NCBI GenBank assembly: GCA_049280815.1
Contig: JBAPQW010000087.1
Span: 2,522 to 66,521, forward strand
From: Verrucomicrobiia bacterium
Lineage (GTDB): Bacteria; Verrucomicrobiota; Verrucomicrobiia; Limisphaerales; UBA11358
DNA length: 64,000 nucleotides
Reading direction: 5' to 3'
The position numbers and the translations under genes were made by a program. Shown here piece after piece: positions 21,398 to 48,403 of this stretch. The number at the start of each line of letters is the position of its first letter. Position 1 is the stretch's first letter. Under the pieces are notes generated by a model that was given only the letters and a program-made list of their open reading frames with translations, was not told the DNA's origin and searched no databases.

Positions 21398-21422
21398 GGG
21401 GGATTATATACTTGACTCACCA
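21398..21422. repeat. Left terminal inverted repeat of the IS1595-type element
   Basis: GGGGGATTATATACTTGACTCACCA, the reverse complement of 23492-23516 with one mismatch. Confidence 0.8.
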
Positions 21423-21446
21423 TAGGCTTTATGCGATATTTGGGGC

Positions 21447-22415: not shown

Positions 22416-22416
22416 A

Positions 22417-22566
22417 TCATAGGCTGCGGCGCTTTGCTTTTCTGGCCTTTTGGTATTGTTGTTCCCGCCGATCAATTTCGGCTTTCGGGACTGATACTAT
22501 TTCCTTCGTGAATTGATGGAATTTTTCAAATGGAGTTGCTCTTTCTGGACTCGACTCTTTTTTCAT
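22417..22566 (-). CDS. Small basic protein (49 aa), passenger ORF inside the IS
   Basis: MKKESSPERATPFEKFHQFTKEIVSVPKAEIDRREQQYQKARKAKRRSL. It starts 13 nt after the stop of the upstream Rx4H-protein ORF, and its stop abuts the transposase stop. The upstream part of the 120-aa ORF-track frame overlaps the preceding gene and is discounted. Confidence 0.4.
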   Translation of the reverse strand: MKKESSPERATPFEKFHQFTKEIVSVPKAEIDRREQQYQKARKAKRRSL

Positions 22567-22579
22567 CGTATGGTGATTT

Positions 22580-23428
22580 CTAAGGTTTCTTGGCGACTTG
22601 GGCCAGAGCAGCAGATAAACCGGGCTGTGCGGGTTGTGAGGGATTGGCCTGTGACATAGCCAACACCATTTGGACAATTGCACTGCAAGCAGCACCCAGC
22701 AAAACCACAGCATCATCGGATGAAAGCATTTCCTCTGGGTGAAGAATTGGATTGCGATATTCTTCTCGAATATGTTCAAGAAATGCGGTTATTTTTTTAT
22801 CAGCACCCGCCGTGTTCAGATTTAAGATATAGCTACCCCAGTTCCGCAGCTTGGCCTTCGGCGGGTGGCCGATGACAAACGTATAGTAAGCACGGATTAC
22901 CGATTCTGTGCCCCTAAGGATGTGAAATGCGGCCGCAGTCGGAATATCAAAGGCGATGCATTTCCCAGCTTGTCGGATGTCAGCAATACATTGCCTCGGG
23001 AGGGCCTTCCGAACCATTTCCGGGAAAAGATTTTCCGGGCGCTCAATTAAGTCTGTTGTCGAGTAAATCAATTTTTGAGACACAAAATAACTTGCGAGGG
23101 TCTGAAGTTCGGCGGAAAACACCGTCTCAAATTCAGTTAGGCTATTCGTAATATTATAAGCCTCCAAAAAGCTTATGGTTTTATTGAAATCTAACTCTTT
23201 CCCTTCGGACGGTTCTGTAACTGCATTTATGGCATTGAGAAGTTTCCAGGCGGTGGGCCTGCAAACAATCATTGGAATTAACCCGTCGTTACAAACTGTC
23301 TCTAGCCAATCTTTGGCCATAAAAAGTTTGTAATACACGTTTTTTAGAACGTCCTTTTCTTGAACGCTCTGGAGCGGATGAAGCACCGTCCCCAAACTGT
23401 AAAATTGATAAAGATTTACTGTTTTCAT
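22580..23428 (-). CDS. HEPN-like (Rx4H motif) protein, passenger gene inside the IS
   Basis: Start taken at ATG 23428 (MKTVNLYQF...), because the ORF-track start at 23518 lies beyond the right terminal inverted repeat (IRR). The C-terminal helical region contains EHIREEYRNPILHPEE, that is R-N-x3-H, the HEPN RNase signature also seen in Abi_2/AbiD-F-type proteins. GC is low (23 G+C in the 60 nt at 23101-23160). Confidence 0.6.
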   Translation of the reverse strand: MKTVNLYQFYSLGTVLHPLQSVQEKDVLKNVYYKLFMAKDWLETVCNDGLIPMIVCRPTAWKLLNAINAVTEPSEGKELDFNKTISFLEAYNITNSLTEFETVFSAELQTLASYFVSQKLIYSTTDLIERPENLFPEMVRKALPRQCIADIRQAGKCIAFDIPTAAAFHILRGTESVIRAYYTFVIGHPPKAKLRNWGSYILNLNTAGADKKITAFLEHIREEYRNPILHPEEMLSSDDAVVLLGAACSAIVQMVLAMSQANPSQPAQPGLSAALAQVAKKP

Positions 23429-23491
23429 ATCCGTTTCCCCCACACTGACAAATAATGCCTTGGGGGGAATACATGGATAATCCACCGCCCT

Positions 23492-23516
23492 TGGTGAGTC
23501 AAGTGTATAATCCCCC
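23492..23516. repeat. Right terminal inverted repeat of the IS1595-type element
   Basis: TGGTGAGTCAAGTGTATAATCCCCC. Confidence 0.8.
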
Positions 23517-23588
23517 AAATTAGGGCACTACCCGCCACGCGGCGAACTTGACGGATGCGCGCAATCGACATAGCCTGTTTACCCGGCT

Positions 23589-23664
23589 GGTGGTCGTAGC
23601 TCAACGGTAGAGTCCAAGCTTGTGGAGCTTGTTGTTGCGGGTTCGAATCCCGTCGGCCACCCCA
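23589..23664 (+). tRNA. tRNA-His (anticodon GTG) with encoded G-1 and CCA
   Basis: Manual fold. G-1 is present. Acceptor GTGGTCG pairs with CGGCCAC. D-arm GCTC-AACGGTA-GAGT. Anticodon stem CAAGC/GCTTG with loop TTGTGGA (GTG). Variable loop TTGTT. T-arm GCGGG-TTCGAAT-CCCGT. Discriminator C, then CCA. Confidence 0.93.
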
Positions 23665-23906
23665 CCCTTCGCTTGCTGCGTCGCGAACGTGGGATTGAAC
23701 CCGTGCCTTTGGCCGGGCCCGGTTCCAAGCGGCGTTGCATTCGTTTCGGCCGGATGCATCAATGATAGCGCCGGCGGGATGGAACATTGAACGCTTCCCT
23801 CAACTCGCGTTAGGGTTAGACCCCATGGCGAAAAATCACCCAGCCGGGTAGCTTCCCCCAATTGGCAGTTTAACCGCAGACGAACACGCAACAAAATCAA
23901 AACATT

Positions 23907-24353
23907 ATGAATAATAAAATTTGGGCCATCGCTTTCCTCTTCACCGCCGCCTTTGCGGCGGGATGTGACAAGCCGCCGACCGCGTCGCAGCAGCTGGATA
24001 CGGTCAAGACCGAAACCAAACAAGCCGCGCAGGACATGAAGGACTATACCTTCGCGCAAAAAGCTGAATTTGTCGCAGCCATGCAGATTCAGTTGGACAA
24101 TCTCAATCATGATCTGGACCAGCTCTCTGCCAAGATCGACGGCTCCAGCGACGCGGTCAAGGCCGAGGCCAAACCCAAGCTTCAAGCGTTGCGCGACCAG
24201 GCGGCCCAGTTGAACAGGCAGTTGGATGGGGCCAGGAACGCCACCGATTCCACCTGGGATAATGTCAAGGGCGGCTTCCAGAAGGCTTACGAATCGACGA
24301 AGGACGGGTTCAACTCAGCGCGTCAGTGGGTAAGCGACAAAATCGCACCTTGA
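23907..24353 (+). CDS. Lipoprotein of unknown function (coiled-coil-like)
   Basis: Signal peptide with lipobox (IAFLFTAAFAAGC). The mature part is Q/A/K/D-rich and helical. Confidence 0.7.
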   Translation: MNNKIWAIAFLFTAAFAAGCDKPPTASQQLDTVKTETKQAAQDMKDYTFAQKAEFVAAMQIQLDNLNHDLDQLSAKIDGSSDAVKAEAKPKLQALRDQAAQLNRQLDGARNATDSTWDNVKGGFQKAYESTKDGFNSARQWVSDKIAP

Positions 24354-24387
24354 GACGAAAGTCATTCACATCAGATCAGTCAAATTT

Positions 24388-24410
24388 TAAAAAGACCGAA
24401 CGGTCTATTT
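24388..24410. terminator. Candidate bidirectional terminator hairpin between convergent genes
   Basis: aaaaAGACC-gaac-GGTCTattt: a short 5-bp stem flanked by an A-run and a T-run. It overlaps the ACP stop codon. The stem is weak. Confidence 0.3.
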
Positions 24411-24677
24411 GGGCAGGGATTGGTGTTTTTGAACTGCCGCGGCAATCGTGTTGACGTCCTGCAATATACCTTTGGCGGCCTCGGGATCGGAAATCTTCAG
24501 CCCATAATTTTTGTCCAGGGCCACCACCAGTTGCAGGGCGTCAACGGAATCCAACCCCAGTCCGCCCGGACCAAACAACGGCAGATTGTCCGCAATTTCT
24601 TCCGCGGAAGTTTGGAGCATGAGGTTTTCCACCAGCAAGTGTTTAATTTGCGTTTTAAGGGCCGGGGTATTGTTCAT
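24405..24677 (-). CDS. Acyl carrier protein
   Basis: 90 aa. Phosphopantetheine attachment motif GLGLDSVDALQLV. Last gene of the coupled operon. Confidence 0.9.
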   Translation of the reverse strand: MNNTPALKTQIKHLLVENLMLQTSAEEIADNLPLFGPGGLGLDSVDALQLVVALDKNYGLKISDPEAAKGILQDVNTIAAAVQKHQSLPK

Positions 24678-25405
24678 TAGAATATGCCACCGTCAATTTT
24701 GAGGGTTGAACCTGTGATGTAGCTGGCTTCGGCGCAAGCCAAAAATCGGACGGCGGCAGCGACTTCGTCAGGTCGGCCGAACCGTCGCATGGGAATCCGC
24801 TCCAGGGCTCTATTGCGTTCCGTCTCATCCATCGCCTGCGACCCGGTCTCCACATATCCCGGACATATGGCATTGACCGTGATGCCAATCCGGGCAACTT
24901 CCTTGGCCAGAGATTGGGACAGCGCCACCACCCCGGCTTTGGCGGCGGCATAGTTTGCCTGACCGGCAGGCGCCAGCAACGCGCTCAGCGAGGCGATATT
25001 GATGATGCGGCCGTTACGCTGGCCAATCATCGTGGGAAGAACCGCCTGACAACCGTGAAAGACCCCATCCAAATTAAGGGCCAGAATTCTTTGCCACGAG
25101 TCCAAAGCCATGGTGGCCAGCAGGGCATCCTCGTGACACCCGGCATTGTTCACGAGCACATCCAACCGCTGGTGGTGGACCAGAATCTCGGCCACGGCCG
25201 CCTTCCATGAGTCAGGCCGGGTGACATCCATGGCAATTGTGCGGCAGCGGTCCGGACTTTCCGCAACAAGTTTTTCGGCCTGATCAAGGCGCTCGTGGAT
25301 ACCCAACCAGATTTTATTTTCCGCGGATTCATGGAGAAATGACCGGGCAATGGCCTGCCCCAAACCGCCGTTGGCGCCCGTGATCAAGATAACGCGCGGA
25401 TTCAT
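24677..25405 (-). CDS. 3-oxoacyl-ACP reductase (SDR, FabG-like)
   Basis: TGANGGLGQAI (TGxxxGxG), VLVNNAG, and the Ser...YAAAK catalytic pattern. Its start overlaps the upstream stop by 4 nt. Confidence 0.9.
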   Translation of the reverse strand: MNPRVILITGANGGLGQAIARSFLHESAENKIWLGIHERLDQAEKLVAESPDRCRTIAMDVTRPDSWKAAVAEILVHHQRLDVLVNNAGCHEDALLATMALDSWQRILALNLDGVFHGCQAVLPTMIGQRNGRIINIASLSALLAPAGQANYAAAKAGVVALSQSLAKEVARIGITVNAICPGYVETGSQAMDETERNRALERIPMRRFGRPDEVAAAVRFLACAEASYITGSTLKIDGGIF

Positions 25406-26478
25406 CGCGCAAGCCTGCCCGCCGTTGTCGGCAATGACAAATCTGAAATGGCCCGGTCGCCATGGTTAAATCGAACCCCAATGGCCTGTTGGTTTGCCCC
25501 CACCAGGCTGACATTGGCGGCACTGAATCTTCGGCTGGCGATCCCATCGCACGCGGCCACGCATTGCCAGGCTGCCGCAGCCATCAAGCCTTCGCCCAAT
25601 ACCAGCTTAGGACTGAGGCGTGGCCCGCTCCAATCAGCCCAGGCATTGGATTCAGCCGCATCGGCACGCGGACTATCATTCCGACCATCACACAAGATTT
25701 CTGTCTGGTCTTGCGCCGGCATCTGTGCCCGCATTTTCTGCGCGGCCAGCTTTCGACTCGTCTGTGCGGTGTAAGCGTGTGCGTCGGTGATCAATTCGAG
25801 CCCGGCTCCCAACGACCATTCCGGATTCAGGCTCAAGCAGAGCGCGGCGGCGCCGCTGCTGAGGACGGTGCGGCGGTCAAAATGCCGGAGGGCGTCGGCA
25901 GACAACCAGTGAACTTCCTCCGCGCCGATCGCGAGGCAGGCATCCACCCGCCCCTCGTGCAACCAGTCAATTCCGAGGGCCAGTCCTTGCGCATAGGCGG
26001 ACGCGTCTCCGGTCAGGGTGCAGACCAGCGGGGTATTATCCAACAGGGCGGCCACATGGCAGGCCGGCGCGGCAAAAACGGTCTCGGGAAACAGCAGTGG
26101 ACTGGCGGTGGCGGCGTTCTTTAACGTCTCCTCGAAAAATCGGGAGGAAAATTGCACGCAGCCGGTTTGCAGACAGACAATAATTCCAATTCGGGGATGC
26201 GCTCCACCGCCGGGCCGGACCTTGCTTGCGGCCTCCAGCGCTGCCGCGGCCGCATGCTGTGTCAATGGACTGGTGCGCCGCATATGGGGATGGGTCAGAA
26301 AGGGTGGCCGGACTGACGGGTTGGGCACGGGTCGCAGGTTCAATGGTTTTTGCCAGCCCGGACGCATCAGCGGCTGGATCGGCAGAGCCGCTTTTTTTTC
26401 CAAGGCAGCGCGAAGAGCTTCCACACCCCAACCCGCCGGGCTGACGCTGCCCAGGCCGCAGACGAATACCCGACTCAT
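25402..26478 (-). CDS. Beta-ketoacyl-synthase-like protein lacking the active-site Cys (CLF-like partner)
   Basis: Thiolase-fold-like N-terminus (MSRVFVCGLGSVSPAGWG). The position of the KS 'ACxSG' motif reads TLTGDASAYA (Cys replaced). No HGTGT or GH His motifs. It overlaps the upstream KS by 4 nt. Confidence 0.8.
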   Translation of the reverse strand: MSRVFVCGLGSVSPAGWGVEALRAALEKKAALPIQPLMRPGWQKPLNLRPVPNPSVRPPFLTHPHMRRTSPLTQHAAAAALEAASKVRPGGGAHPRIGIIVCLQTGCVQFSSRFFEETLKNAATASPLLFPETVFAAPACHVAALLDNTPLVCTLTGDASAYAQGLALGIDWLHEGRVDACLAIGAEEVHWLSADALRHFDRRTVLSSGAAALCLSLNPEWSLGAGLELITDAHAYTAQTSRKLAAQKMRAQMPAQDQTEILCDGRNDSPRADAAESNAWADWSGPRLSPKLVLGEGLMAAAAWQCVAACDGIASRRFSAANVSLVGANQQAIGVRFNHGDRAISDLSLPTTAGRLAR

Positions 26479-27716
26479 GACCCCCTCCGCATGATCAGGG
26501 TGGCATTGACGCCACCAAACCCAAACGAATTTGAAAGCGCCACCTTGACGGATGCCTCTTCCGGCCGGGCGACAATGCGAAAAGCGCAGGCCGGGTCGGG
26601 GGTCTCAAAGGCCAGTTCCGGTGGCAGCCATTGCTCGCGCAAACACATGAGGCAAACCACGGCCTCCACCGAACCAGCCCCGCCCAGAAGATGTCCGATG
26701 CCAGCTTTCGTTGAACTGACCGGCAGAGTGCCTGCACGGCTGCCTGCCCAGCGGCTGATGGCTTTTGCCTCGGCTTGGTCATTCAACGGGGTTCCGGTGC
26801 CGTGGGCGTTGATGTAATCAACATCTTCAGCCGTGACCTGCGCGCCCGTGCAGGCCGATTGCATCGCCTGGTATGCCGCGTCTCCTTCCGGATGCGGTTG
26901 AGTAAGATGGTGGCGGTCCATGCTGGTGCCATAGCCAATGATTTCCCCCAAAATGTCGGCGCCCCGATTCCGTGCTGATTCAAAGGTTTCGAGGGTCAAC
27001 ACCGCCGCGCCTTCGCCCATGGCCAAGCCATCGCGATGCGCGTCAAACGGCCGGCAACTCGTGGGCGACAACGTTTGCAGCGAATCAAAGCCGGAAAACA
27101 CCATCTGGCTGAGGGCGTCATAACCGCCGGTCAAAACCCGGTCGGCTTGTCCGCGCCGGATCATTTCCCAGGCCTCACCGATGGCGCTGGTCCCGGAGGC
27201 ACAGGCGTTGGAGAGGATCGTGATCGGCCCGGCGAAACCCAGGGCGTCCAACAGCATCCGTGCCTGGAAGTGCGACTGATAATGCAAAACCCGCGTGGGC
27301 TGTCCTTTGTGGTGATGGGGCAAACTGACGGCCTGGCGAAAGTAATCCTCCCCAACCGTCATGCCGCCGGCCGTGGTGCCCAAAACAACCGGCAAATGAT
27401 TGGACGTTTCCCAACCGGACTGCTGCCAGGCTTCGTGGGCCGCCAGCAACAACATGATGCTGGCCCGGTCCAACCGTTTGTTTTGGCGCTCCGTCAATCG
27501 CGTTGCCGGCAGCATGGCGGGCAACTCCACCACCGCCGCGGTTTTGACCCGTTGCTGGCTGACATCGAAGTGGGTGACGGGACGGAAACCTGTCTTCCCC
27601 GCGCGAAACGCTGCGGCGTTCTGTTTCCATCCCTGCCCCAGCGACGTCACGATCCCGGCGCCGGTGACCACCACGCGCGGTTTGGTCGAAGGGAAGGAGT
27701 TTTTGGGAAAAAGCAT
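26475..27716 (-). CDS. Beta-ketoacyl-ACP synthase (FabF/KAS II-like)
   Basis: Catalytic triad motifs SNACASGTSAIGEA (Cys), INAHGTGTPLND (His) and SSTKAGIGHLLGGAG (His). Confidence 0.92.
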   Translation of the reverse strand: MLFPKNSFPSTKPRVVVTGAGIVTSLGQGWKQNAAAFRAGKTGFRPVTHFDVSQQRVKTAAVVELPAMLPATRLTERQNKRLDRASIMLLLAAHEAWQQSGWETSNHLPVVLGTTAGGMTVGEDYFRQAVSLPHHHKGQPTRVLHYQSHFQARMLLDALGFAGPITILSNACASGTSAIGEAWEMIRRGQADRVLTGGYDALSQMVFSGFDSLQTLSPTSCRPFDAHRDGLAMGEGAAVLTLETFESARNRGADILGEIIGYGTSMDRHHLTQPHPEGDAAYQAMQSACTGAQVTAEDVDYINAHGTGTPLNDQAEAKAISRWAGSRAGTLPVSSTKAGIGHLLGGAGSVEAVVCLMCLREQWLPPELAFETPDPACAFRIVARPEEASVKVALSNSFGFGGVNATLIMRRGS

Positions 27717-27731: not shown

Positions 27732-29051
27732 TCATGCGGGCACGGTCTGCGCGAGCCGGTAAACGCTTTGCCGGAAACCGAAGTTCATCGGGTAAAACAA
27801 GTTCTTCCAGGCGGTTGTTCCCCACAGGCGTTTGAAAATGGAGGGAATCGAATACACCTCCTTGAACACGCGGTAATAACCTTTCAGCAACTGGTCGGCG
27901 GTCAGGCTCTTGGGTTTGAAGACCACGTGGTTGGCGTCGTACAGCGACCAGTCCTGGGTCAGAATCCGATCTTCCCGGGCCAGCCGTTGATGCAGCCGGG
28001 TGCCGGGATACGGCGTGAGGATGGAAAAATAGGTCACTTCAATTTTCGCCTTCAAAACAAATTCCAGCGTGCGGTCGAAAACCCCCTCGTCATCGTTGTC
28101 AAAACCAAACACGAATGAGCCGTCGATGCCGATGCCGTGGTCGTGAATTTTTTGCACGATATCGAAATACTGGTCCGGGTGATTCACGCGCTTGCCCATC
28201 GCGGCGATGGTTTCGGGCGAGAGCGATTCGAAGCCCATGAAGAGTCCCTTGCAGCCGCTTTGCTGGCAAAGCTTCAGGATTTCCGGATCGCTGGCAATGT
28301 TGACCGAGGCCTGGCCAAACCAGTTCAGCTTCAAATCGGCGATGCGGGGCAAAAACTCCCGGGCATAGGCGCGGTTGCTGATGATGTTGTCATCCGTAAA
28401 AAACACGCAGTTCTTCAACGAGAACGTTCCCCGATCGAAAGGGGTCAGTCCCCGCAGTTCCGCCAGCACCTCCTCCTGCGGACGGTTGCGATATTTCCCG
28501 CCAAAGGCGCTCGTCACGGCGCAAAATTCGCAGTCAATCGGGCAGCCCCGGGTCGTTTCGACAAAATGAACCGGCAGATATTTTTTATTTTCGTAAAGAT
28601 TCCAATCCGGCGGCGGCAGCCCGGCCAGCGATGGCAGACTGTCTTGATGGCGGTAGACGGGCTTGAGCTGGTGGAGTTCGAAATCGCGCAACAAAGCAGG
28701 CCACAGCGCCTCGGCTTCTCCCATCACCAGACTGTCGCAGTGCGGTTGAGCCTCATCCGGCAGGCAGGAAACGTGCATCCCGCCCAGCACCACCTTGATG
28801 CCGCGCTGGCGGAAATGATCAGCAATTTCATAAGCCCGCTGGACGGTGGTGGTCATGGCGGTGATGCCCACCAGATCAGCCTCCTGGTTCAAATCCAACG
28901 GTTCGCTTTTCTCATCCACAATCGTGACCTGCCAGTCGGACGGCGTCAGCGCCGCCACTTTGAGGAGGCCGAGACCGGGCATGCGGAAAAAGAATTTATC
29001 ACCCATCAGGCTTTTCCTGGAGAGCGGGGAGATGAGCAATAATTTTTTCAT
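27732..29051 (-). CDS. B12-binding-domain radical SAM enzyme (class B)
   Basis: N-terminal cobalamin-binding-like Rossmann segment (MKKLLLISPL...ADLVGITAMT). Radical SAM cluster motif TTRGCPIDCEFCAV (CxxxCxxC). About 440 aa. Confidence 0.88.
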   Translation of the reverse strand: MKKLLLISPLSRKSLMGDKFFFRMPGLGLLKVAALTPSDWQVTIVDEKSEPLDLNQEADLVGITAMTTTVQRAYEIADHFRQRGIKVVLGGMHVSCLPDEAQPHCDSLVMGEAEALWPALLRDFELHQLKPVYRHQDSLPSLAGLPPPDWNLYENKKYLPVHFVETTRGCPIDCEFCAVTSAFGGKYRNRPQEEVLAELRGLTPFDRGTFSLKNCVFFTDDNIISNRAYAREFLPRIADLKLNWFGQASVNIASDPEILKLCQQSGCKGLFMGFESLSPETIAAMGKRVNHPDQYFDIVQKIHDHGIGIDGSFVFGFDNDDEGVFDRTLEFVLKAKIEVTYFSILTPYPGTRLHQRLAREDRILTQDWSLYDANHVVFKPKSLTADQLLKGYYRVFKEVYSIPSIFKRLWGTTAWKNLFYPMNFGFRQSVYRLAQTVPA

Positions 29052-29055
29052 CGGT

Positions 29056-30459
29056 TCATTTTCCATTTACGCCATGCGGCCACAGGCGTTGAATGGTTGA
29101 AAAGTAGCTCCACAACGGCCCGACGGCACCTTTTTTACGCAACCGTTCGACCAGGCGGGTGTAGGCCGGCCCCGGATCACCGATAATCCAGCTGGGCGCG
29201 AGGCGGGCAAAGGCCTGGAGCCGGGCAAAGACCTCATCCGCCATCAGACCGGGCGCGAGATAATAAGCGGGGGCAAGCAAATCGGTCTCCTGGTCAATGC
29301 AGCCTTCGGCGACCGCCTGCTGAAACAGGCGCGTGCCCGGATAAATCCGCATCCCCACCACCGCAATGATGACGGCGTTCTTGATCCGCAACGATGCCTC
29401 AAATCCGCACCGCAAGGTTTCCCTGGTTTCACCCGGGCCGCCGCTGATGAGAAAATGGCAGAAATCGATGTTCTCCTGGTTGGCCAGTTCGCTCGCATGC
29501 AGGATGTCGTCGAAAGTCAGCCCTTTTTGGTAAGCCGCCAGAACCTCGTCACAGAAACTGTCCGAACCAAACTCAATGTGCGCCAGCCCGGCCCGCTTCA
29601 TCAGCTTCATCAATTCCGGCGTCAATCCTTGAGGTCGCAGAAAACAACCCCAGGCCAGCTTCACATTGCGGCGCAGAATGGCCTCGCAGATTTCCGCGAC
29701 ATGACGCGGGGAAGAATTGAAGACCGAATCCACGATGAACACATAGCGGGCCCCCAGCCTTTGCACCTGCTCGAATTCATCGCCCACGGCGTCAGCGGAG
29801 CGACTCCGGTGATGCCGGCCTTCAATGATCGGATACGTGCAATAACAACATTGGCTGGCACAACCGCGCTGGGTCTGGATGTTCAGCATGCCGCTGGTGC
29901 GCAGGTAATAGTCCGAGACGGTGGCCGGACGGTCGCCCTCGGCCAGAATTTGTCCGTCCGGACTGCCGGCGGGCGGATTGATGAGGATATTCCCGTTTTC
30001 GCGGTAAACCAGGCCGGGAATACCGGAGAAATCGCAGCCGTTGTTCAAGGCGGCCAGCAGGGAAACAAAACCGGCTTCGCCTTCGCCGCAGATGCCATAT
30101 TCTGCGCCGGTCAATTGCAGCAACTGCCGGGGAAAAATGCTGAAGCCGCTGCCGCCCAGCACCACCGGACATTTGACTGTCTGCCGGATCGTTTCACCCA
30201 GCGCGGAGAGGTGGTCAAAAAAAGTTTCCCGTTTGCGGATGATCACATCGTCAATGTTACGGACGGAAATACCAACGACATCCGGTGGATAACCGTCCAA
30301 AACATCCTCGATTCGTTCGGCACCAGCCAGGCTGTCGACCCAATGGGTGTCGTGGCCAGCCCGGCGCAACGCAGAATTCAGGTAGGCCAGCCCCAGCGGA
30401 AAGACCGGGTCGGGCAGGGTGCAGCGGTTGTCGCTGATCAGTAGAACTTTGTTACCCAT
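29056..30459 (-). CDS. B12-binding-domain radical SAM enzyme (class B), second paralogue-type
   Basis: MGNKVLLISDN...PDVVGISVRN (B12-like domain). QRGCASQCCYCTYP supplies CxxxCxxC. About 467 aa. The longest possible ORF of the downstream rSAM (start 29066) would overlap this gene's stop at 29056; with the chosen start at 29051 the two genes are separated by about 4 nt. Confidence 0.88.
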   Translation of the reverse strand: MGNKVLLISDNRCTLPDPVFPLGLAYLNSALRRAGHDTHWVDSLAGAERIEDVLDGYPPDVVGISVRNIDDVIIRKRETFFDHLSALGETIRQTVKCPVVLGGSGFSIFPRQLLQLTGAEYGICGEGEAGFVSLLAALNNGCDFSGIPGLVYRENGNILINPPAGSPDGQILAEGDRPATVSDYYLRTSGMLNIQTQRGCASQCCYCTYPIIEGRHHRSRSADAVGDEFEQVQRLGARYVFIVDSVFNSSPRHVAEICEAILRRNVKLAWGCFLRPQGLTPELMKLMKRAGLAHIEFGSDSFCDEVLAAYQKGLTFDDILHASELANQENIDFCHFLISGGPGETRETLRCGFEASLRIKNAVIIAVVGMRIYPGTRLFQQAVAEGCIDQETDLLAPAYYLAPGLMADEVFARLQAFARLAPSWIIGDPGPAYTRLVERLRKKGAVGPLWSYFSTIQRLWPHGVNGK

Positions 30460-30590
30460 GCAATGGCGGGTTTGTGATTCCGGCAACTGGACCAGTGACC
30501 GTGGTCACTCCAAGGCTGCGGCAGAACCCCTCAAGACGTTGGCATGAGGACACAGGTTGTTCAGCGATGACAGCTTTAAGCACGTGCGCC

Positions 30591-31697
30591 TTACGATTGA
30601 ACTCTGCGGGCGATCTCCTTTCCTGCGGCGTCCGCTCCCTGGCCCTGATAAAAATCGGCCAGCCCGGTTTTCGAAGGCGCGAGTCCTTCCGCGGAAAGCG
30701 CGTTGAGCACATGTTCTTCCGTCATGATGAACCGGCCGCGTTTGTAAATGACGTAATCACCGCGCAAATCACCGGGGGTCATGTTGATCGTCACGAGATT
30801 CGCCCCCGCGCGCAAGCCGCGACGATAGCCATCCGGCGCGGCAAGGTTGAACGCGCTGACGGCGGGGATCACCCAGTCCGGCCGCATCAACCGCATGGCG
30901 CTCACACAATTGAAGGTCCAGTCGGCCTGGGCCGTCGAGCCCCCGGCGAACGGCGTGTTTTCACCGGGAATGAACGGGCTGACGCTGCAACCGTGCAGCG
31001 GGAGCGTGCGGGCGAGTTCCAGGTTTTTCCACAAATCCCGCGGCTGTTGTCCGGGCAATCCAACGATGAATCCGGAGCTGACAAACCATCCATTTTCCGC
31101 GAGCAGGCGGATGTGCCGCAGCCGTTCGGCCAGGGTGCCGGGCGCTTCCAGTTGTTCATAGTGCGCGGCATTGCCGGTTTCGAACTTCATGATAAAAATA
31201 CCCGCGCCCGCGGCCTGCAGCTCGGAATAAACTTCCGGCGACAAGGTCCCCAGGCAAACGCTGATCCCGAGCGGTGTTTCGCGCCGCAGGGTTTCGATGA
31301 GCGGCAGCACGACCTCGCGCACCGCCACCGGGTCTTCGCCCGACTGGATGTTGACGTCCGTCACGCTGTCCGGGCGATGCTCGACAAGCAGTTCGGCGAT
31401 TTTTTCATGCTGCGCGCGGTAGCGGGCGAGGCTGCGATTATCGCGGCGCATGCCACAGTAGCCGCAATTTTCGCGGCAGAAATTCGAAACTTCGACCACG
31501 GCGCGCACGAAAACTTTCTTGCCAAATCGAGTTCGCGTGGCGGCCGCGGCGCGTTCGTGCAAGCCCGCTTGGGCCGCGCCGTTCAAGGCGAGTTCCGACT
31601 CGGTGGGAAAATGGCCGTTACTTGACACCAGGTGATGATAGTACGCCCGCCATCCTGGCGCAACCAGCGGGGTGAAGATCCCATATCCATCAGCCAA
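30591..31697 (-). CDS. Radical SAM enzyme of the BioB/ThiH/HydE-like subgroup
   Basis: VSNFCRENCGYCGM (CxxxCxxC) follows an N-terminal extension. TIM-barrel-length body of about 368 aa. Confidence 0.85.
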   Translation of the reverse strand: MADGYGIFTPLVAPGWRAYYHHLVSSNGHFPTESELALNGAAQAGLHERAAAATRTRFGKKVFVRAVVEVSNFCRENCGYCGMRRDNRSLARYRAQHEKIAELLVEHRPDSVTDVNIQSGEDPVAVREVVLPLIETLRRETPLGISVCLGTLSPEVYSELQAAGAGIFIMKFETGNAAHYEQLEAPGTLAERLRHIRLLAENGWFVSSGFIVGLPGQQPRDLWKNLELARTLPLHGCSVSPFIPGENTPFAGGSTAQADWTFNCVSAMRLMRPDWVIPAVSAFNLAAPDGYRRGLRAGANLVTINMTPGDLRGDYVIYKRGRFIMTEEHVLNALSAEGLAPSKTGLADFYQGQGADAAGKEIARRVQS

Positions 31698-31876
31698 CGG
31701 CCGGCTTAAGTCAGGCCCCCAATGACGACACGAACATTGGAGTTACGGAGGTCTCCGCCGCTGAAGGCCCGGTCGTCAAAACCGGCCTGCCTTCCAACCG
31801 CCTGGATCGATGGCGCATCGCACGCCCAGTTTTCCCAAGGTTATGGATTGGAAACGCCAAAGTGCCGGCGGCGGGT

Positions 31877-32566
31877 TCAAGGCAACGATTTCCGCGCCTG
31901 CAGCACGATCCGGGTGCCGAAATACAGCCATATTTTGGCATTGGGAATTTCGGCCCGGTCCGCCAGTTTGCGCCATTCACCCAGACGAAAACCGCGCCGC
32001 ACCGAAATCAATCCATCACTGCGCAAGGTTCGACTGACCCGCAGGAAATGCATGCCGAGCCAGACCAGGGCATAAAGCCCGGCGTTGCGGTGGAGGTCGC
32101 AAAAGAACACCGCTCCGCGCGTCACCCGCCAGGCCTCGCGCCAGTGCGTGACGATTTGTTCGTCGGTCAAGTGATGGGTCATTTGCGAGGTGACCACCAG
32201 GTCGAAGCTGCCGTCGGCGAACGGCAGTTGCAATGCCGAACCGACCACGCTGTCCGGGCGGTTGCCAATTTTTAGCGCGACCGGGTTGGTGTCCAGATCA
32301 GTGAAATGCCAGTGCCAGCCGCGGCGGCACGCCCAGTCGGTTAATCGTTCCCCGAGCAGACCGGTGCCCGCGCCCACGTCGAGAATGTTTAACCGCTCGC
32401 AATTCACCCGCCCCAGCCATCGGGGCAGCCCCGCGGCAAATGGATGCGAAAACTGAAAGACCGAGTTGACGCGGTTGAGATCACGAAACGAAGCGACGGT
32501 CTCCGCCTCGGTGCGGCCGGGCAAATCAAAAAATTCTGTTTGCGTGGAGCGATGCCGCAAAAACAT
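31877..32566 (-). CDS. Class I SAM-dependent methyltransferase
   Basis: Motif I ILDVGAGTGLLGERL and an acidic motif II region (HFTDLD). 229 aa. Confidence 0.8.
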   Translation of the reverse strand: MFLRHRSTQTEFFDLPGRTEAETVASFRDLNRVNSVFQFSHPFAAGLPRWLGRVNCERLNILDVGAGTGLLGERLTDWACRRGWHWHFTDLDTNPVALKIGNRPDSVVGSALQLPFADGSFDLVVTSQMTHHLTDEQIVTHWREAWRVTRGAVFFCDLHRNAGLYALVWLGMHFLRVSRTLRSDGLISVRRGFRLGEWRKLADRAEIPNAKIWLYFGTRIVLQARKSLP

Positions 32567-32658: not shown

Positions 32659-34311
32659 TCAGAGAAAATCCGCTTCCTCCGGCACGGTGAAAACATAGCC
32701 TTCCGCCGCCAGCCGGGTAAGCACGGTTTCGGCCAGAATCACATTAATCGGTCGTCCGTGTCGATCGCGCCGGCCTTCATGCAACAATATGATCGCGCCG
32801 GGTTGGACGGAGCGGTGGATCCGATCCGCCATGGCTTCAGGATCCTGAAACAGTCCATCAAATCCGCGCGCCGACCAGCCGATGAGCTTCAGGTTCCGGT
32901 CGCACAGTAGAATGTGCAGAAACAGATTGGCCATGCCCGCCGGCGCCCGAAACCATCGGGGTGGTTCGCCGGTGGCTTCGCGCAAGGCCTGGCTGCATTG
33001 ATCAATTTCCCGCGTCAACCAAGTTTCGAGAAAACTCCAGAAAAACAATACCGGATGGGTCTGCGTGTGATTGGCCAGCGAGTGACCGTCGCGCAAAATC
33101 GCCCGGGCCAGTTCCGGATATTCTTGAACCCGCCGGCCAATCACAAAAAAGGTCGCCCGCGCGTTGTATTTTTTTAGCAGCTTGAGCAGCTGCGGCGTGT
33201 CCTCGGGATGCGGGCCGTCATCAATGGTCAGCCAGACGGCCTTTTTCTGCGTGCGAAAGCGGGTGACGACCCGGCCAAACCAGCCACAATTGGCGCGAAT
33301 CGCCGGAAAAATAATCAAAGTTTTTGTGGCCAGATCCAGGCTTAAAAAAAACAGCTTGTGATTCCAGTTAAGGGCCAGCAGCACGGGTGTGGTCAAACAT
33401 ACGGCGAAGACCAGAATTAAGGCAAACCGGCGGCGCGTGAAAAACCAGAGGCCCACCCTGGTCAGCACGGTTTCCGGTGCAATGGCAATGCTTTTTGCCT
33501 GCGACAGGCCGATGGGCTGCGGAGTCCTCCCCCCGTGTTTTGCCCGCTGCCGCAATCTCCAGATCCGCCGCATTTGCGGCAACAGTTCCAGCACCAAAAG
33601 CGTGTGCCGCTGAATGAGCAGCAGATTATCCCGCCAATAATGGAAGTGGGAAATTCCGCCGTCCGCCGGATTGAAATACCTGACCGGTGCGGAAAGATTG
33701 ATCGGTGGCACCCCGGCCCAAAATAGCCGCACGGCCAGTTCCGTGTCGAAATCAAACCGCCGCGCGCCGGGCGTACTTTGCAGGATGCGCACCGATTCCT
33801 GGAGGGGATAAACCCGGAAACCGAAAAGCGAATCTTCAATCCCGCCCCAGAACGTCTCCAGATTGGCCCACCAGTTCCCCACGCGCCGGCCGTGACGGCG
33901 CAATGCCGGCGCATCCATGGCAAATTGGGGCACACCCAAAATCATGGCGGCGGGATTTTTCTGCGACGCCTGCATGAAACGGGAAATATCGGCCGCCGAA
34001 TGCTGGCCATCCGCGTCCAGCACCAGCGCATGGGTGAAGCCCGCCTGACCGGCAGCCAGCATCGCGTGCAGCACGGCGGCGCCCTTGCCCGAGTTGCAAT
34101 CGAGGGATAAAACCCGCAGGCCACTTCCCGGCCGGTTCATTTCCGCCAACGCCGCCGCGCTGCCATCCGTGCTGCCATCCAGCACGACCCACACGGGCTG
34201 CCAGCAAACCAGGGCTTCCTTCACCGTTTCGGCGAGCCGGCTTCCCGTGTTGTAACTCGGGATGATGACCAGATGCGACTGGCTTGGCGCCGGCTGGTTC
34301 GGGTCGCTCAT
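32659..34311 (-). CDS. Fusion protein: family-2 glycosyltransferase + TM segment + NodB-type polysaccharide deacetylase
   Basis: N-terminal GT2 strings (LVIIPSYNTGSRL, VLDGSTDGS, VLDADGQH). Central hydrophobic helices. C-terminal NodB motifs (WLTIDDGPHPEDT, GHSLANHTQTH, LLHEG). Confidence 0.85.
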   Translation of the reverse strand: MSDPNQPAPSQSHLVIIPSYNTGSRLAETVKEALVCWQPVWVVLDGSTDGSAAALAEMNRPGSGLRVLSLDCNSGKGAAVLHAMLAAGQAGFTHALVLDADGQHSAADISRFMQASQKNPAAMILGVPQFAMDAPALRRHGRRVGNWWANLETFWGGIEDSLFGFRVYPLQESVRILQSTPGARRFDFDTELAVRLFWAGVPPINLSAPVRYFNPADGGISHFHYWRDNLLLIQRHTLLVLELLPQMRRIWRLRQRAKHGGRTPQPIGLSQAKSIAIAPETVLTRVGLWFFTRRRFALILVFAVCLTTPVLLALNWNHKLFFLSLDLATKTLIIFPAIRANCGWFGRVVTRFRTQKKAVWLTIDDGPHPEDTPQLLKLLKKYNARATFFVIGRRVQEYPELARAILRDGHSLANHTQTHPVLFFWSFLETWLTREIDQCSQALREATGEPPRWFRAPAGMANLFLHILLCDRNLKLIGWSARGFDGLFQDPEAMADRIHRSVQPGAIILLHEGRRDRHGRPINVILAETVLTRLAAEGYVFTVPEEADFL

Positions 34312-35093
34312 GAATTTGTTTCCCGGGTTGGTGCCAGGGTTTCCCTGAAATAATTTTCCACCGCGAGGCCAAATGGTTTTGCTTCCTGTGCCGGCTCCGG
34401 CTGAAACCGCCTGCCCAGGCGCAGGGAATAGCGCACCGGAAAGGCCGGCCTTTTGAAAAACGGCCGGCCTTTGCCCAGGCAGTTGCCCTCCGCACGGATA
34501 ATGACGGTCTGCACCGGCGACCGGGTCAAAACCGCGGCCAGGGCGAACCCCATCTTGAAGGGCAGCAATTCCCCCCCCACGGTCCGCGTGCCCTCGGGAA
34601 ACACCAGCAGATTGGACCCCTCTTTCAGCCGCTCCTCACATTTTTTAACGAGGCCCAAACCGGATTGATTATGGATGTACCCGGCCAGCCGCGCCGTGCC
34701 CGACAACACAATGTTGCGCGCCAGACTTCCCTTCATCAGGCAGACGGCTCGCGGCACCAGGGAAACCAGCAACACCGCGTCCAGCAGACCGGGATGATTC
34801 GCCACCACGATCAATCCGCTGGCAGGGCGCAGTGCGGACAACCCGCCAGCGTCCAGTTCGAGCAGCCCAAACGCGCGCAAATACCCTACAAAAAAGACGA
34901 ACAACGTATGAATCAGCTTTTGGCCAAAAAAACGCGCGCCGACCCCTCGAAATAAAATTGCCGGAACCGCACAAGCCACGCTGACCACCGATCCGACGAC
35001 CGCAAAAATAAAAAACGCCCCAAAAAAGGCCGCAGTTTGCAAAACGTCTTGGAACCAGTTTTTGGTTGGTGTCGAAATCAGTTCGAAAGGCAT
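34308..35093 (-). CDS. Lysophospholipid/glycerol-3-phosphate-type acyltransferase (PlsC/LPLAT family)
   Basis: N-terminal TM helix. HX4D motif VANHPGLLDAV. VFPEGTRT motif. First gene of the operon. 4-nt overlap with the next gene. Confidence 0.85.
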   Translation of the reverse strand: MPFELISTPTKNWFQDVLQTAAFFGAFFIFAVVGSVVSVACAVPAILFRGVGARFFGQKLIHTLFVFFVGYLRAFGLLELDAGGLSALRPASGLIVVANHPGLLDAVLLVSLVPRAVCLMKGSLARNIVLSGTARLAGYIHNQSGLGLVKKCEERLKEGSNLLVFPEGTRTVGGELLPFKMGFALAAVLTRSPVQTVIIRAEGNCLGKGRPFFKRPAFPVRYSLRLGRRFQPEPAQEAKPFGLAVENYFRETLAPTRETNS

Positions 35094-35400: not shown

Positions 35401-35793
35401 ATGGAAAATCATGCTGTGATTGAAATGCTGCCAATATCAGATCCTGCACGAACCCTCCCCGCGCGCCGGAAGTTCTGGTTCACCAAAATCGCCACCTTTT
35501 TAACCGCCTCCGCGCTGTTGGGCTGGTCCTATGGCTGGTCGTCAGCCCGGGCATTTCCCAAAGGTAAAACCTTTGGATTTGGTTACGGCATGTTGCACGG
35601 CGCGTTGATGCCGCTCGCGCTGCCAAGCCTGCTCCTCGGCCGGGACGTGGAAATTTTTGCAGCGGACAATTCGGGGCGCCTCTACAAAATCGGCTACATT
35701 TGCGGCATCAACGCCTGCGGCCTGGCCTTCTTCGGGCCTTTGTTCTGGCGTCCGAAACGGGGCGCGGCGGATCATAAAAACCAATTTCGATAA
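35401..35793 (+). CDS. Small integral membrane protein of unknown function
   Basis: Start taken at ATG 35401 (MENHAVIEML...). Three or four hydrophobic segments. Divergent from the lipid operon. The 5' extension in the ORF track is Ala/Pro-rich shadow sequence. Confidence 0.45.
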   Translation: MENHAVIEMLPISDPARTLPARRKFWFTKIATFLTASALLGWSYGWSSARAFPKGKTFGFGYGMLHGALMPLALPSLLLGRDVEIFAADNSGRLYKIGYICGINACGLAFFGPLFWRPKRGAADHKNQFR

Positions 35794-36518
35794 ATCTCGA
35801 TGAGGTTCAGGCTGCCGCCCACCCAGTAAAGATTCCCCGGCAGAAAGAACGTTTGCGACGCCCGGTCAAACGTCAATTGCGAAGGTCGGATCGGGTCGTT
35901 CGGGTCGTAGGCTTGAAATTCAAAACCGCGCCCGGTTTCCACCCCGTCGAAAACCACCATGCTGTGATTGATGGACAGGGAAGGGAAATTCACCAGATGG
36001 ATGATGGGCGAAATATTTTGTTTGAGGGTGACGAACAATTGCGCGGCTGTGCGCGCCTGGTGGGCGCGCGTAATCGGAAACACCATCCGCCAATGGCTCC
36101 GCAAAAAGTACGAACGCCATGCGCCGCCGCACTCGACCTTGAACAGTTGTTCGCGCGCCCGGCTGAATTCGTGCAAACTGGCATATCCGGGGATGACAAT
36201 CTGCCTCCCGCCCGGGCACGGCGTCCGCGGGTCGCGCGAAAGGACTTCGCGAATCAAATGCCGGCAGGTTTCGTCATCAGCGGTGGGTTGGCCGGCGTCG
36301 AACTGCGCATGACCATGGAATTGCCGCACCGCGCGGGTCAGGACAAAACAGCGATGCGTGTAGTCCGGCTTCGGCTTGCGCCGGCGGATGATGGTTTTGC
36401 CGGTCGCTGGATCGAATTGATAGGTCCACACCAATTCATTGGCAAAGGCGAAGGTGTCGCGGGCAAATTCAAAGCGCCGCCCGACAGCCTCGCCTGGATC
36501 TATTTTGGTCGATATCAT
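35772..36518 (-). CDS. Hypothetical protein (possible Cys/His hydrolase- or transferase-like fold)
   Basis: Start taken at ATG 36518 (MISTKIDPGE...). 248 aa with a globular composition. Conserved-looking Cys (YTHRCFVLTRA) and His (SINHSMVVFD) in the order seen in papain-like folds. The fold assignment is speculative. Confidence 0.55.
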   Translation of the reverse strand: MISTKIDPGEAVGRRFEFARDTFAFANELVWTYQFDPATGKTIIRRRKPKPDYTHRCFVLTRAVRQFHGHAQFDAGQPTADDETCRHLIREVLSRDPRTPCPGGRQIVIPGYASLHEFSRAREQLFKVECGGAWRSYFLRSHWRMVFPITRAHQARTAAQLFVTLKQNISPIIHLVNFPSLSINHSMVVFDGVETGRGFEFQAYDPNDPIRPSQLTFDRASQTFFLPGNLYWVGGSLNLIEIYRNWFL

Positions 36519-37829: not shown

Positions 37830-37883
37830 CACCGCCTCGGCTTTTTGTTTCCGGATCGCGCCGCTTGCTGCACTCTTGGATGC

Positions 37884-48337: not shown

Positions 48338-48403
48338 TGGGCTGCTTGGCACGGAGCGCGGACGGCTCGTCCGCGTGTTCGCGGGCAAGCTGCCCGCGCT
48401 CCT

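Follow-up and report, generated by a model that had tools for sequence, protein, structure and literature searches.

A Verrucomicrobial variant of the TIGR04072 "ladderane-type" lipid gene clusters with a variable set of radical SAM genes

INTRODUCTION

Extended fatty acid synthase (FAS) gene clusters of Kuenenia stuttgartiensis were described by Rattray in 2009 as combining S-adenosylmethionine (SAM)-radical enzymes and Cys-less FabF/FabB paralogues with a "phenylacetyl-CoA ligase," a glycosyltransferase, a polysaccharide deacetylase, a methyltransferase, and a new membrane protein (PMC2649909). These clusters are syntenic with clusters of Desulfotalea, Geobacter, and Pelobacter, of which Desulfotalea is without ladderanes (PMC2649909), and they include the consecutive genes kuste2803 (a B12-binding radical SAM protein), kuste2804 (FabF), and kuste2805 (a noncanonical ketosynthase) (PMC4790861). 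A cluster reported to be exclusive to ladderane producers further includes amxFabZ and a phytoene-dehydrogenase homologue (PMC10139942). The anammox ladderane pathway was still described as unknown in 2023 and 2026 (PMC10139942; PMC13459092), and "ladderane" calls made by antiSMASH in Verrucomicrobiota and other phyla are recorded with the function stated to be unknown (PMC9902471). Here, we analyze a cluster of this type, with three consecutive radical SAM genes (C, B, and A), in 64,000 nucleotides of DNA from a Verrucomicrobiia bacterium (assembly GCA_049280815.1, contig JBAPQW010000087.1, positions 2,522 to 66,521), a stretch that we call the window and number from its first letter.

We assign the cluster, as a Verrucomicrobial variant, to the long-known but functionally unsolved "ladderane-type" lipid clusters of TIGR04072, an NCBIfam family defined on candidate ladderane clusters of anammox bacteria. 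Since both the family of gene B and the type of cluster were already known, the finding is less new than it first seemed. What appears to be new is a variable radical SAM slot, which precedes a ketosynthase (KS) and its chain length factor (CLF) and occurs in five architectures (C-B-A, B-A, C-B, B, and C); a natural deletion of B and A; and a dedicated HydE paralogue in such a cluster. For radical SAM tailoring of fatty-acyl (nonisoprenoid) lipids, a 2026 review names only the unsolved ladderanes and the Jaw5 enzyme of jawsamycin (PMC13459092), and our search of the literature found no characterized product for such clusters. The field is almost uncharted, and the TIGR04072 clusters have stood in it as a recognized puzzle since 2009.

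THE RADICAL SAM TRIO AND THE CHAIN-BUILDING CORE

The open reading frames (ORFs) of the window place the three radical SAM genes head to tail on the minus strand, all of them intact, and immediately downstream of them lie genes for a KS, a CLF, a FabG-type reductase, and an acyl carrier protein (ACP). In the direction of transcription, the features are as follows.

30591-31697, minus strand: radical SAM protein C, HydE/PylB-like, 368 amino acids (aa), motif CRENCGYC, no B12 domain (Pfam, NCBIfam, and Protein Data Bank [PDB] matches)
29056-30459, minus strand (longest ORF to 30486): radical SAM protein B, class B, TIGR04072 member, 467 aa, motif CASQCCYC
27732-29051, minus strand: radical SAM protein A, B12 domain plus C-terminal DUF4070, 439 aa, motif CPIDCEFC
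26475-27716, minus strand: KS, FabF-like, with active-site Cys (Pfam ketoacyl-synt N and C)
25402-26478, minus strand: CLF-like KS paralogue without the catalytic Cys and His (alignment; no Pfam match, weak FabF match)
24677-25405, minus strand: FabG-type 3-oxoacyl-ACP reductase (Pfam adh_short/KR; TIGR01830, 250 bits)
24405-24677, minus strand: ACP, 90 aa, motif GLDSVD (translation; weak PP-binding match in the public gene call)

The KS scores 374 bits on the FabF model, under the equivalog cutoff, and shows NACASG in the alignment; in the CLF, the Cys is replaced by Ala and the HGTGT motif is absent. Upstream of the trio lie genes for a methyltransferase, a fusion of a family 2 glycosyltransferase (GT2) with a deacetylase, and a lysophospholipid acyltransferase (LPLAT). 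An earlier reading made from the sequence alone (the sequence-only reading) had placed three radical SAM genes with intact CxxxCxxC motifs between KS genes and tailoring genes. The translations contain all three motifs, and the ORFs together with Pfam and NCBIfam matches confirm the placement.

On the Pfam radical SAM model PF04055 (gathering score, 29.5 bits), A, B, and C reach 60, 74, and 63 bits, which makes all three members of the superfamily. N terminal to the barrel, the B12-binding model PF02310 (gathering score, 32.1 bits) matches A with 49 bits and B with 52 bits, and it has no match in C. By domain architecture, A and B are class B radical SAM proteins with predicted use of cobalamin. 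They share 24% identity over 203 residues, so that they are old paralogues and, as had been claimed, clearly different proteins instead of recent duplicates.

For A, the longest ORF starts at 29066, and the public gene call for identical DNA, which starts B at 30459 (467 aa), starts A at 29006 (424 aa) with a gap of 49 nucleotides (nt). Translation of A from the ATG at 29051 (MKKLLLIS) regains the first β-strand of the Rossmann fold, comparable to MGNKVLLIS in B. With this start, the gaps around A are 4 nt to the stop codon of B (29056-29058) and 15 nt to the KS gene. The sequence-only reading had given both this separation and the overlap of the longest ORFs at 29056-29066, and the ORFs 27732-29066 and 29056-30486 indeed both exist. 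The KS and CLF genes overlap by 4 nt, as do those of CLF and FabG, and those of FabG and ACP overlap by 1 nt. These overlaps and short gaps point to translational coupling from KS through ACP and around A.

GENE B AND THE TIGR04072 FAMILY

Protein B matches TIGR04072 ("rSAM_ladder_B12," "lipid biosynthesis B12-binding/radical SAM protein") with 386.5 bits against a cutoff of 360, over positions 1-438 of the 443 of the model, and its close homologues in metagenome-assembled genomes (MAGs) of Verrucomicrobiota carry the name "lipid biosynthesis B12-binding/radical SAM protein." Its next NCBIfam matches, BzaD (216 bits) and TsrM (149 bits), are both far below their cutoffs, and on the hopanoid models HpnJ and HpnR it reaches 101 and 97 bits against cutoffs of 577.6 and 650; HpnP is absent among the NCBIfam matches of A and B. 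An exhaustive search with B returned 1,076 cluster representatives at an E value of <1e-30, and all 10 representatives sampled across this range pass the TIGR04072 cutoff.

The best solved relative of B in a PDB search is TsrM (6wte), with 125 bits spanning both domains. Using residue roles reported for TsrM (PMC12931638), we compared the two in a 249-sequence alignment of the family. The equivalent of R69 of TsrM, an arginine under the corrin, is kept in 246 of the 249 members, and the asparagine next to it is kept in 244. The position of E236, between the cobalamin and the cluster, is a tyrosine in 238 of the 249, as in radical methylases. The position of E273, a residue that in TsrM ligates the unique iron of the cluster and rules out a radical mechanism, is occupied by Val, Ile, or Leu in TIGR04072, so that the unique iron is left free for SAM. 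Of the features of TsrM-type nonradical methylases, B thus keeps the arginine alone. Judged by these residues, TIGR04072 is predicted to have a cobalamin pocket like that of TsrM together with an iron that is open to SAM, and the pattern that separates the family from TsrM appears to be new.

On these grounds, B may be a cobalamin-dependent C-methylase using 5'-deoxyadenosyl radical chemistry, and we put forward methyl transfer as its specific reaction tentatively. BzaD and TsrM are its closest characterized relatives, and it shares the arginine under the corrin with TsrM; it differs from both in its low scores and in a genomic context that is that of lipids, not thiopeptides or corrinoids. 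The sequence-only reading had described class B enzymes as typically methylating unactivated carbons or carrying out other difficult C-C chemistry. BzaD and TsrM, however, methylate sp2, not unactivated sp3, carbons.

A VARIABLE RADICAL SAM SLOT

We assembled 159 related loci, of which 79 are anchored on B (one genome per species; compared by tblastn with every protein of the window) and 80 are anchored on C (from a scan of metagenomes with a profile of C; 66-90% identity), 71 of the latter having readable downstream sequence. Among the 79 B-anchored loci, the KS was found in 48, the CLF in 47, the ACP in 37, and an AMP-forming ligase in 36, at the same divergent position. A is present in 35 (after removal of cross-matches to B at 22-27% identity), a conserved 248-aa protein in 34, FabG in 27, and C in 25; the LPLAT, the GT2-deacetylase fusion, and the methyltransferase are confined in this set to the closest relative. 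The KS co-occurs with the CLF in 47 loci and adjoins B or C in 48 of the 79, as it does in the majority of the metagenome loci. The architectures in these genomes are C-B-A-KS (17 loci), B-A-KS (16), B-KS (8), and C-B-KS (7), and in a further 27, a few of which are on short contigs, B has no detected partner. C-B-A-KS thus recurs in 17 other species-representative genomes, and it is found in 7 metagenome contigs as well, which shows that the order is not due to chance.

The C-anchored loci extend this variation. C is followed by B or KS in all 71 loci with readable downstream sequence: in 48, the KS comes directly after C, without B or A, and in 22, B follows C (7 C-B-A-KS, 5 C-B-KS, and 10 ending at the contig end). 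The remaining locus (L085), on a sister contig that comes from a bog metagenome, retains 78 codons from the 3' end of A, located between C and KS. This contig is colinear with window positions 40135-23811 at 85-90% nucleotide identity, and at its positions 9067-9072 it has a clean 2,597-bp deletion corresponding to 27929-30525 of the window, a segment that comprises B in full together with about 375 codons of A. Each of the three genes is dispensable on its own, which suggests that they catalyze independent tailoring steps and do not form an obligate three-enzyme machine.

On a neighbor-joining tree of B, the slot architectures are interspersed. The loci in which B stands alone are also interspersed with the clustered ones, and we therefore rejected the notion that they are a separate paralogous clade; clustering of the proteins encoded next to these lone B genes revealed no recurrent family. 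The interval between the gene for the 248-aa protein and the radical SAM genes holds an opposite-strand small membrane protein in 21 loci and a stand-alone GT2 in 13.

Several individual loci deserve separate mention. One MAG (CAYNZC01; L059 and L063) has two B paralogues, one in a B-A-KS-CLF cluster and the other, with no KS, beside a GT2, a deacetylase, a further B12-binding radical SAM protein (525 aa), and an LPLAT. In L084 (9470-13775), the order is the membrane protein (minus strand), B, CLF, and KS, with the CLF preceding the KS and with no A, C, FabG, or ACP. Four loci (L011, L019, L021, and L034) are labeled "uncultured Bifidobacteriaceae bacterium," and their B proteins are 60-64% identical to B of Verrucomicrobiota; as they group inside Verrucomicrobial clades on the tree of B, these labels are probably wrong.

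RADICAL SAM PROTEIN A

Along with its B12-binding and radical SAM matches, A has a DUF4070 match (30 bits in Pfam), and it reaches no NCBIfam cutoff, its best models being HpnJ (97 bits), BchE (94 bits), ApyD (85 bits), and HpnR (78 bits). With 75 bits on TIGR04072, it falls outside the family of B. Structure prediction, which had been proposed as a check and was run for A, gave an AlphaFold2 model of moderate quality (mean predicted local distance difference test [pLDDT] score, 70). A Foldseek search with this model retrieved AprD4 (best), TsrM, MgmA, MiaB, CysS, TokK, and OxsB. These matches confirm, at the level of a predicted model, the class B architecture and nothing further, since TM-scores of 0.35-0.44 do not discriminate between functions. 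The Rossmann domain of AprD4 is not known to bind cobalamin.

The relationships of A bear on whether any carbon is added at all. In B and/or A, the B12-type domain might have a redox or structural function, as it does in OxsB and AprD4, and the enzymes might carry out anaerobic desaturation, dehydration, or C-C cyclization of an ACP-bound chain. Such nonmethylating chemistry would fit the appearance of the diol dehydratase AprD4 among both the structural and the sequence matches of A, its best NCBIfam models being enzymes of ring contraction (HpnJ) and oxidative cyclization (BchE) and not methylases, the lack of a dehydratase or desaturase in the cluster of the window, and the polar arginine that B keeps under the corrin, a residue linked to enzymes without radical methylation (PMC12931638). 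Set against this, all of the family matches of A are far below cutoffs, the closest families of B, BzaD and TsrM, are methylases, and most characterized class B enzymes methylate (PMC12931638). We therefore regard this alternative as rather unlikely, though the most probable of those weighed here, and retain tailoring that includes C-methylation as the preferred reading.

RADICAL SAM PROTEIN C

C scores 192.6 bits on HydE (TIGR03956; cutoff, 254.6), 118 bits on PylB (cutoff, 348), and 63 bits on BioB (cutoff, 225), below the cutoff in each case. Its best PDB sequence match is HydE of Thermotoga maritima (155 bits, residues 46-324, 279 residues), and its identity to HydE is 38-40%, with PylB and then BioB aligning more weakly. 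The assignment as BioB/HydE-like made from the sequence alone therefore stands on its HydE side. Insertion of sulfur, which that reading had associated with such enzymes, is disfavored: BioB membership also requires three cysteines and an arginine for the auxiliary [2Fe-2S] cluster, the translation of C has no C-terminal accessory-cluster cysteines, and its three semiconserved extra cysteines have been lost independently among homologues, with no covarying Cys triad. A sacrificial auxiliary cluster of the BioB/LipA kind is thus unlikely, and we rejected a BioB-like cluster in C.

C differs from HydE in its context too, lying beside KS or B and never among hyd genes; hydA, hydF, and hydG were not found in the 64-kb window. 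From the presence of B or KS after C in 71 of 71 loci, we conclude that it is dedicated to the cluster and is not a hydrogenase maturase.

ACCESSORY GENES OF THE CLUSTER

Upstream of the trio, the window encodes the following features, of which the last is an uncertain member of the cluster (it is colinear in L085).

31877-32566, minus strand: class I SAM-dependent methyltransferase (Pfam Methyltransf_11/25)
32659-34311, minus strand: GT2 fused to a NodB-type polysaccharide deacetylase (Pfam Glycos_transf_2 and Polysacc_deac_1)
34308-35093, minus strand: LPLAT/PlsC-type acyltransferase (Pfam Acyltransferase, 64.5 bits)
35401-35793, plus strand: small conserved membrane protein, about 130 aa (21 loci have a homologue in this position, with 46-80% identity)
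35772-36518, minus strand: conserved 248-aa protein (34 of 79 genome loci, adjoining the divergent AMP-forming ligase)
36564-37829, plus strand: short AMP-forming acyl ligase, 421 aa, divergently transcribed (Pfam AMP-binding and AMP-binding_C)
37845-38600, plus strand: PAP2-family lipid phosphatase (Pfam PAP2; conservation limited to the closest relatives, L001 and L085)
38808-39575, plus strand: UbiE/MenG-like methyltransferase (Pfam Ubie_methyltran; TIGR01934, 138 bits, below cutoff)

The methyltransferase at 31877-32566 is present only in the close lineage of the window and in some metagenome loci. The deacetylase part of the fusion scores 108 bits on the NodB model, below its cutoff of 240, and other lineages have a stand-alone GT2 on the opposite strand. 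The small membrane protein has no family match in Pfam or NCBIfam. The 248-aa protein matches nothing in Pfam, NCBIfam, or a PDB profile search even at an E value of 10, and its single-sequence AlphaFold2 model is unusable (pLDDT, 35.7); its invariant residues in the alignment (Cys57, His142, His153, His174, His185, Asn184, and Asp205) would be compatible with a Cys-His-Asp site for acyl transfer or hydrolysis. Between the methyltransferase and C, an 89-aa ORF (31711-31980, minus strand) overlaps the 3' end of the methyltransferase gene; its tblastn matches are confined to L001 and L004, and it is absent from the public annotation and is probably not a gene. An Rfam scan of the window returned tRNA-His only, with no cobalamin riboswitch or other RNA element, and scans for promoters and terminators gave counts at chance level.

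The ligase is a relative of fatty-acid and aryl-CoA ligases, with scores well under the cutoff on fatty-acid-CoA ligase models. Its presence raises the alternative that the radical SAM enzymes construct a branched or cyclic starter acid, which the ligase loads and KS/CLF extends. Conservation of the ligase with the cluster in 36 of 79 loci is in keeping with this, as is the fact that class B enzymes of the CysS type build branched alkyl groups on carrier-bound, starter-like units (titles of PDB 9n1b-d). PylB, to which C is related, introduces a methyl branch via skeletal rearrangement of an amino acid. The gene order speaks against it, however, in that the radical SAM genes abut the KS gene and the ligase gene is divergently transcribed 5-8 kb away. 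Moreover, a cluster without radical SAM genes would lack its starter, yet single-radical-SAM versions of three kinds exist. Starter construction consequently strikes us as improbable, and we favor tailoring of the KS/CLF product.

THE PROPOSED PATHWAY AND ITS STRENGTH

In the pathway that we infer, from the substrate and the methyl transfer to the role of C and the final glycolipid, the operon would serve as an acyl-chain factory of the type II FAS or polyketide synthase kind. The short AMP-forming ligase would activate a starter acid, which the KS and the Cys-less CLF would extend on the dedicated ACP, with FabG where it is present and otherwise with housekeeping FAS enzymes. A, B, and C, encoded in the slot upstream of the KS gene, would act as separate, dispensable tailoring enzymes on the pantetheine-tethered chain or its starter. 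B may use methylcobalamin to methylate a carbon of the chain as it grows, probably via the 5'-deoxyadenosyl radical; A may contribute another C-methylation, a C-C reaction, or a redox reaction; and C, which has no obligate auxiliary cluster, may catalyze a rearrangement or an addition by radical chemistry rather than insert sulfur. The LPLAT and/or the Cys-His protein of 248 aa could then transfer the completed chain to an acceptor that bears sugar and is produced by the GT2 and the NodB-like deacetylase. The outcome would be an envelope glycolipid whose acyl decoration varies by strain, following a logic like that of Nod factors or aryl polyenes.

That the radical SAM enzymes tailor the KS/CLF product of a lipid pathway is, in this general form, likely. 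The sequence-only reading had proposed modification of an ACP- or lipid-bound chain, and the conserved adjacency to KS, CLF, and ACP makes this the best-supported interpretation. The more specific explanation as a whole, namely, three independent radical tailoring enzymes acting on an acyl chain that is bound to a carrier and would end up in an envelope glycolipid, is one that we favor on balance and with somewhat less assurance.

Several observations weigh against it. Both sets of loci are anchored on a radical SAM gene, so the frequencies of the architectures are biased. About 25 of the 79 B orthologues have no KS or other conserved neighbor within 10 kb, and B may accordingly also act on bulk lipids or with unlinked partners. 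The TsrM-like arginine suggests an unusual cobalamin environment and not a standard sp3 methylase, and the best fold match of A, AprD4, is a nonmethylating diol dehydratase. Genes for a dehydratase, an enoyl reductase, a thioesterase, and an exporter are all missing from the window. TIGR04072, the family of A, and the family of C have no assayed member, and heterologous expression of the anammox homologues yielded no new lipid, with two radical SAM proteins undetected (PMC4790861; PMC10139942).

A more speculative proposition, which we consider possible but doubtful, is that the slot preceding KS-CLF is a natural combinatorial cassette. In it, Verrucomicrobia of peatlands would combine, in varying sets, three radical enzymes that differ in mechanism, namely, a cobalamin enzyme related to TsrM and BzaD, a class B enzyme with DUF4070, and a HydE paralogue that moved from metallocofactor assembly into lipid chemistry, and an envelope glycolipid would thereby receive branched or cyclized acyl chains specific to the strain. 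C would in that case be the first member of the HydE family to act on a substrate bound to an acyl carrier, and the C-only, B-only, and C-B-A variants would offer a tractable route to the chemistry of TIGR04072, including the anammox enzymes. The finding alone reveals no new chemistry. It does supply a HydE paralogue with a clearly nonhydrogenase role and a compact gene set of about 12 kb together with natural knockouts and single-radical-SAM versions, in which the mass shift caused by each enzyme could be read by comparative lipidomics or heterologous expression.

DISTANT MEMBERS OF TIGR04072 AND DOMAIN FUSIONS

A deep search was run with P0373, the top TIGR04072 scorer among the sampled representatives (518 bits), whose relatives are named from KSB1, Calditrichaceae, Brevinematales, and Sumerlaeota. 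Three of its matches lie on megabase-scale contigs (L080, L081, and L082), and all three are in clusters resembling those for aryl polyenes (APEs), where the distant TIGR04072 members have 33-37% identity to B. Their gene set comprises an amine oxidase, KS, ACP, acyltransferase, AMP-binding enzyme, Lyase_aromatic, and ApeP/ApeI dehydratase, followed by 4HBT, KS, two or three B12-binding radical SAM proteins, GT2-DUF2062, and Lip_A_acyltrans. An A-like radical SAM gene directly adjoins the distant TIGR04072 gene (29% identity over about 400 residues, with CxxxCxxC kept), which indicates that the pairing of B with an A-like protein is ancient. By tblastn, homologues of the lyase, dehydratase, 4HBT thioesterase, and amine oxidase of L080 are absent from the window; in the other direction, the distant TIGR04072 loci examined have neither C nor the 248-aa protein nor the small membrane protein. 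TIGR04072 is thus located in lipid or FAS-like neighborhoods in the window, in 48 of the 79 related loci, and in these distant clusters.

In further support of the proposed pathway, members of the family are also fused to Lip_A_acyltrans (P0276), 4HBT (P0269), and a SPASM radical SAM protein (P0280). In P0349, a single chain of 2,279 aa, Pfam identifies five Radical_SAM, four B12-binding, and one SPASM domain. P0378 (2,331 aa) has matches to B in four stretches and is, judging from these matches, probably similar. Both look like whole tailoring sets fused in one chain.

SURROUNDINGS OF THE CLUSTER

The window has a G+C content of about 60%, and the best homologues of B and A are from Verrucomicrobiota MAGs, mostly from peat, bog, and soil. 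The flanks of the cluster encode housekeeping functions (GatB, a Mur ligase, RimO, a P-type ATPase, SPFH proteins, and two sigma-54 two-component systems), along with hopanoid genes and a small patch of low G+C content.

45686-46777, plus strand: HpnD, presqualene diphosphate synthase (294.7 bits; cutoff, 278.6)
46737-47612, plus strand: HpnK (283.8 bits; cutoff, 232.6)
47648-48388, minus strand: HpnG-like phosphorylase (below cutoff)
49214-50953, minus strand: RimO orthologue, the fourth radical SAM gene of the window (471 bits; cutoff, 357)
23590-23664, plus strand: tRNA-His, in the low-G+C patch
22580-23518, minus strand: 312-aa ORF with no family match, in the low-G+C patch
21447-22415, plus strand: IS1595/ISXO2-like transposase, in the low-G+C patch

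The window has no orthologue of HpnJ, HpnR, or HpnP. The hopanoid genes that it does have are relevant to the alternative that the trio entered the operon by accident and serves hopanoids, [FeFe]-hydrogenase maturation (C), or synthesis of the B12 lower ligand (B). HpnD and HpnK, both above cutoff, and the HpnG-like gene are 15-18 kb away in the window, C is 38-40% identical to HydE, B has its 216 bits on BzaD, and about 25 B orthologues are not beside a KS gene. Nevertheless, all of the relevant scores are far below the equivalog cutoffs, C adjoins KS or B in 71 of 71 loci, hydA, hydF, and hydG are missing from the window, and unrelated genes (guanylate kinase and a sigma-54 two-component system) separate the hpn genes from the cluster. 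The sequence-only reading had named, as grounds for abandoning it, close orthology to radical SAM enzymes of known, unrelated function together with FAS genes that are not conserved beside them. We found neither: HpnJ, HpnR, and BchE, as well as HydE, PylB, BioB, BzaD, and TsrM, are excluded as orthologues by scores far below their cutoffs, and B occurs with KS in 48 of 79 loci and C before KS or B in 71 of 71. We accordingly hold a service elsewhere to be very improbable and a role in the KS/CLF pathway to be preferable.

The low-G+C patch (20400-24400, about 50-52%), which is immediately 3' of the ACP gene, looks like a small insertion at the tRNA; the colinearity of L085 with the window ends beyond 23811. 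The RimO orthologue has 579 aa in comparison with the 432 positions of its model and carries an insertion of about 100-150 residues between its UPF0004 and radical SAM domains. Three consecutive SPFH/Band-7 genes (57197-61091, minus strand; 364, 306, and 628 aa) lie beside an ABC-2 permease gene and downstream of the P-type ATPase gene.

COMPARISON WITH KNOWN SYSTEMS

Compared by description, the nearest counterparts of the cluster are the clusters of anammox bacteria (Kuste3335-3352, Kuste2802-2805, and Kuste3603-3608) and some Desulfobacterota, with which it shares the order B12-binding radical SAM protein, FabF, and noncanonical KS and an accessory set of a short acyl ligase (the "phenylacetyl-CoA ligase" of PMC2649909), a glycosyltransferase, a polysaccharide deacetylase, a SAM-dependent methyltransferase, and a small membrane protein. 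It differs from them in lacking the phytoene-dehydrogenase-like oxidase and the FabZ-type dehydratase and in having the HydE-like protein and the 248-aa Cys-His protein, both absent from the distant TIGR04072 loci examined. Of the set that marks clusters of the kuste3603-3608 type (amxACP, amxFabZ, and phytoene dehydrogenase), the 64-kb window has no amine-oxidase/phytoene dehydrogenase gene and no gene of the FabZ/FabA type.

This likeness invites the idea that the cluster makes true ladderane-type (cyclobutane) lipids, as proposed for the homologous anammox clusters. B does belong to a family built by NCBI on candidate ladderane clusters, and the order of its neighbors mirrors kuste2803-2804-2805 (PMC4790861; PMC2649909). 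Ladderanes, however, are known only from anammox Planctomycetota, and the Desulfotalea clusters gave none (PMC2649909); the window is without the amxFabZ and phytoene-dehydrogenase homologues of the producer-exclusive cluster (PMC10139942), and the sister strain represented by L085 dispenses with both B and A. Ladderane synthesis is therefore a very unlikely function of this locus, and radical tailoring of a carrier-bound chain for an envelope glycolipid remains our preferred explanation.

With APE and flexirubin clusters, the cluster shares a KS with a Cys-less CLF, a dedicated ACP, a FabG-type ketoreductase, an adenylating enzyme, a methyltransferase, a GT2, and a lysophospholipid-type acyltransferase. 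It lacks their ApeI/ApeP dehydratases, ammonia-lyase, 4HBT thioesterase, and LolA/MMPL export genes; with the dehydratase and the aromatic starter pathway absent, it falls outside the APE clusters despite its KS/CLF, ACP, and ketoreductase. To our knowledge, classical APE clusters carry no radical SAM genes.

Nod-factor synthesis relies on the GT2 NodC, the deacetylase NodB, the KS NodE, the ACP NodF, and the N-acyltransferase NodA. The analogy with Nod-factor acylation would be one of logic only, in the pairing of a GT2 and a NodB-like deacetylase with a dedicated KS and ACP and with acyltransferase candidates; the window has no NodA homologue, and its NodB-like domain stays below the NodB cutoff. 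For the radical step itself, TokK and CysS, both class B radical SAM enzymes, have been crystallized with pantetheinylated substrates (PDB titles), which provides a precedent for enzymes of the class of A and B acting on carrier-tethered molecules.

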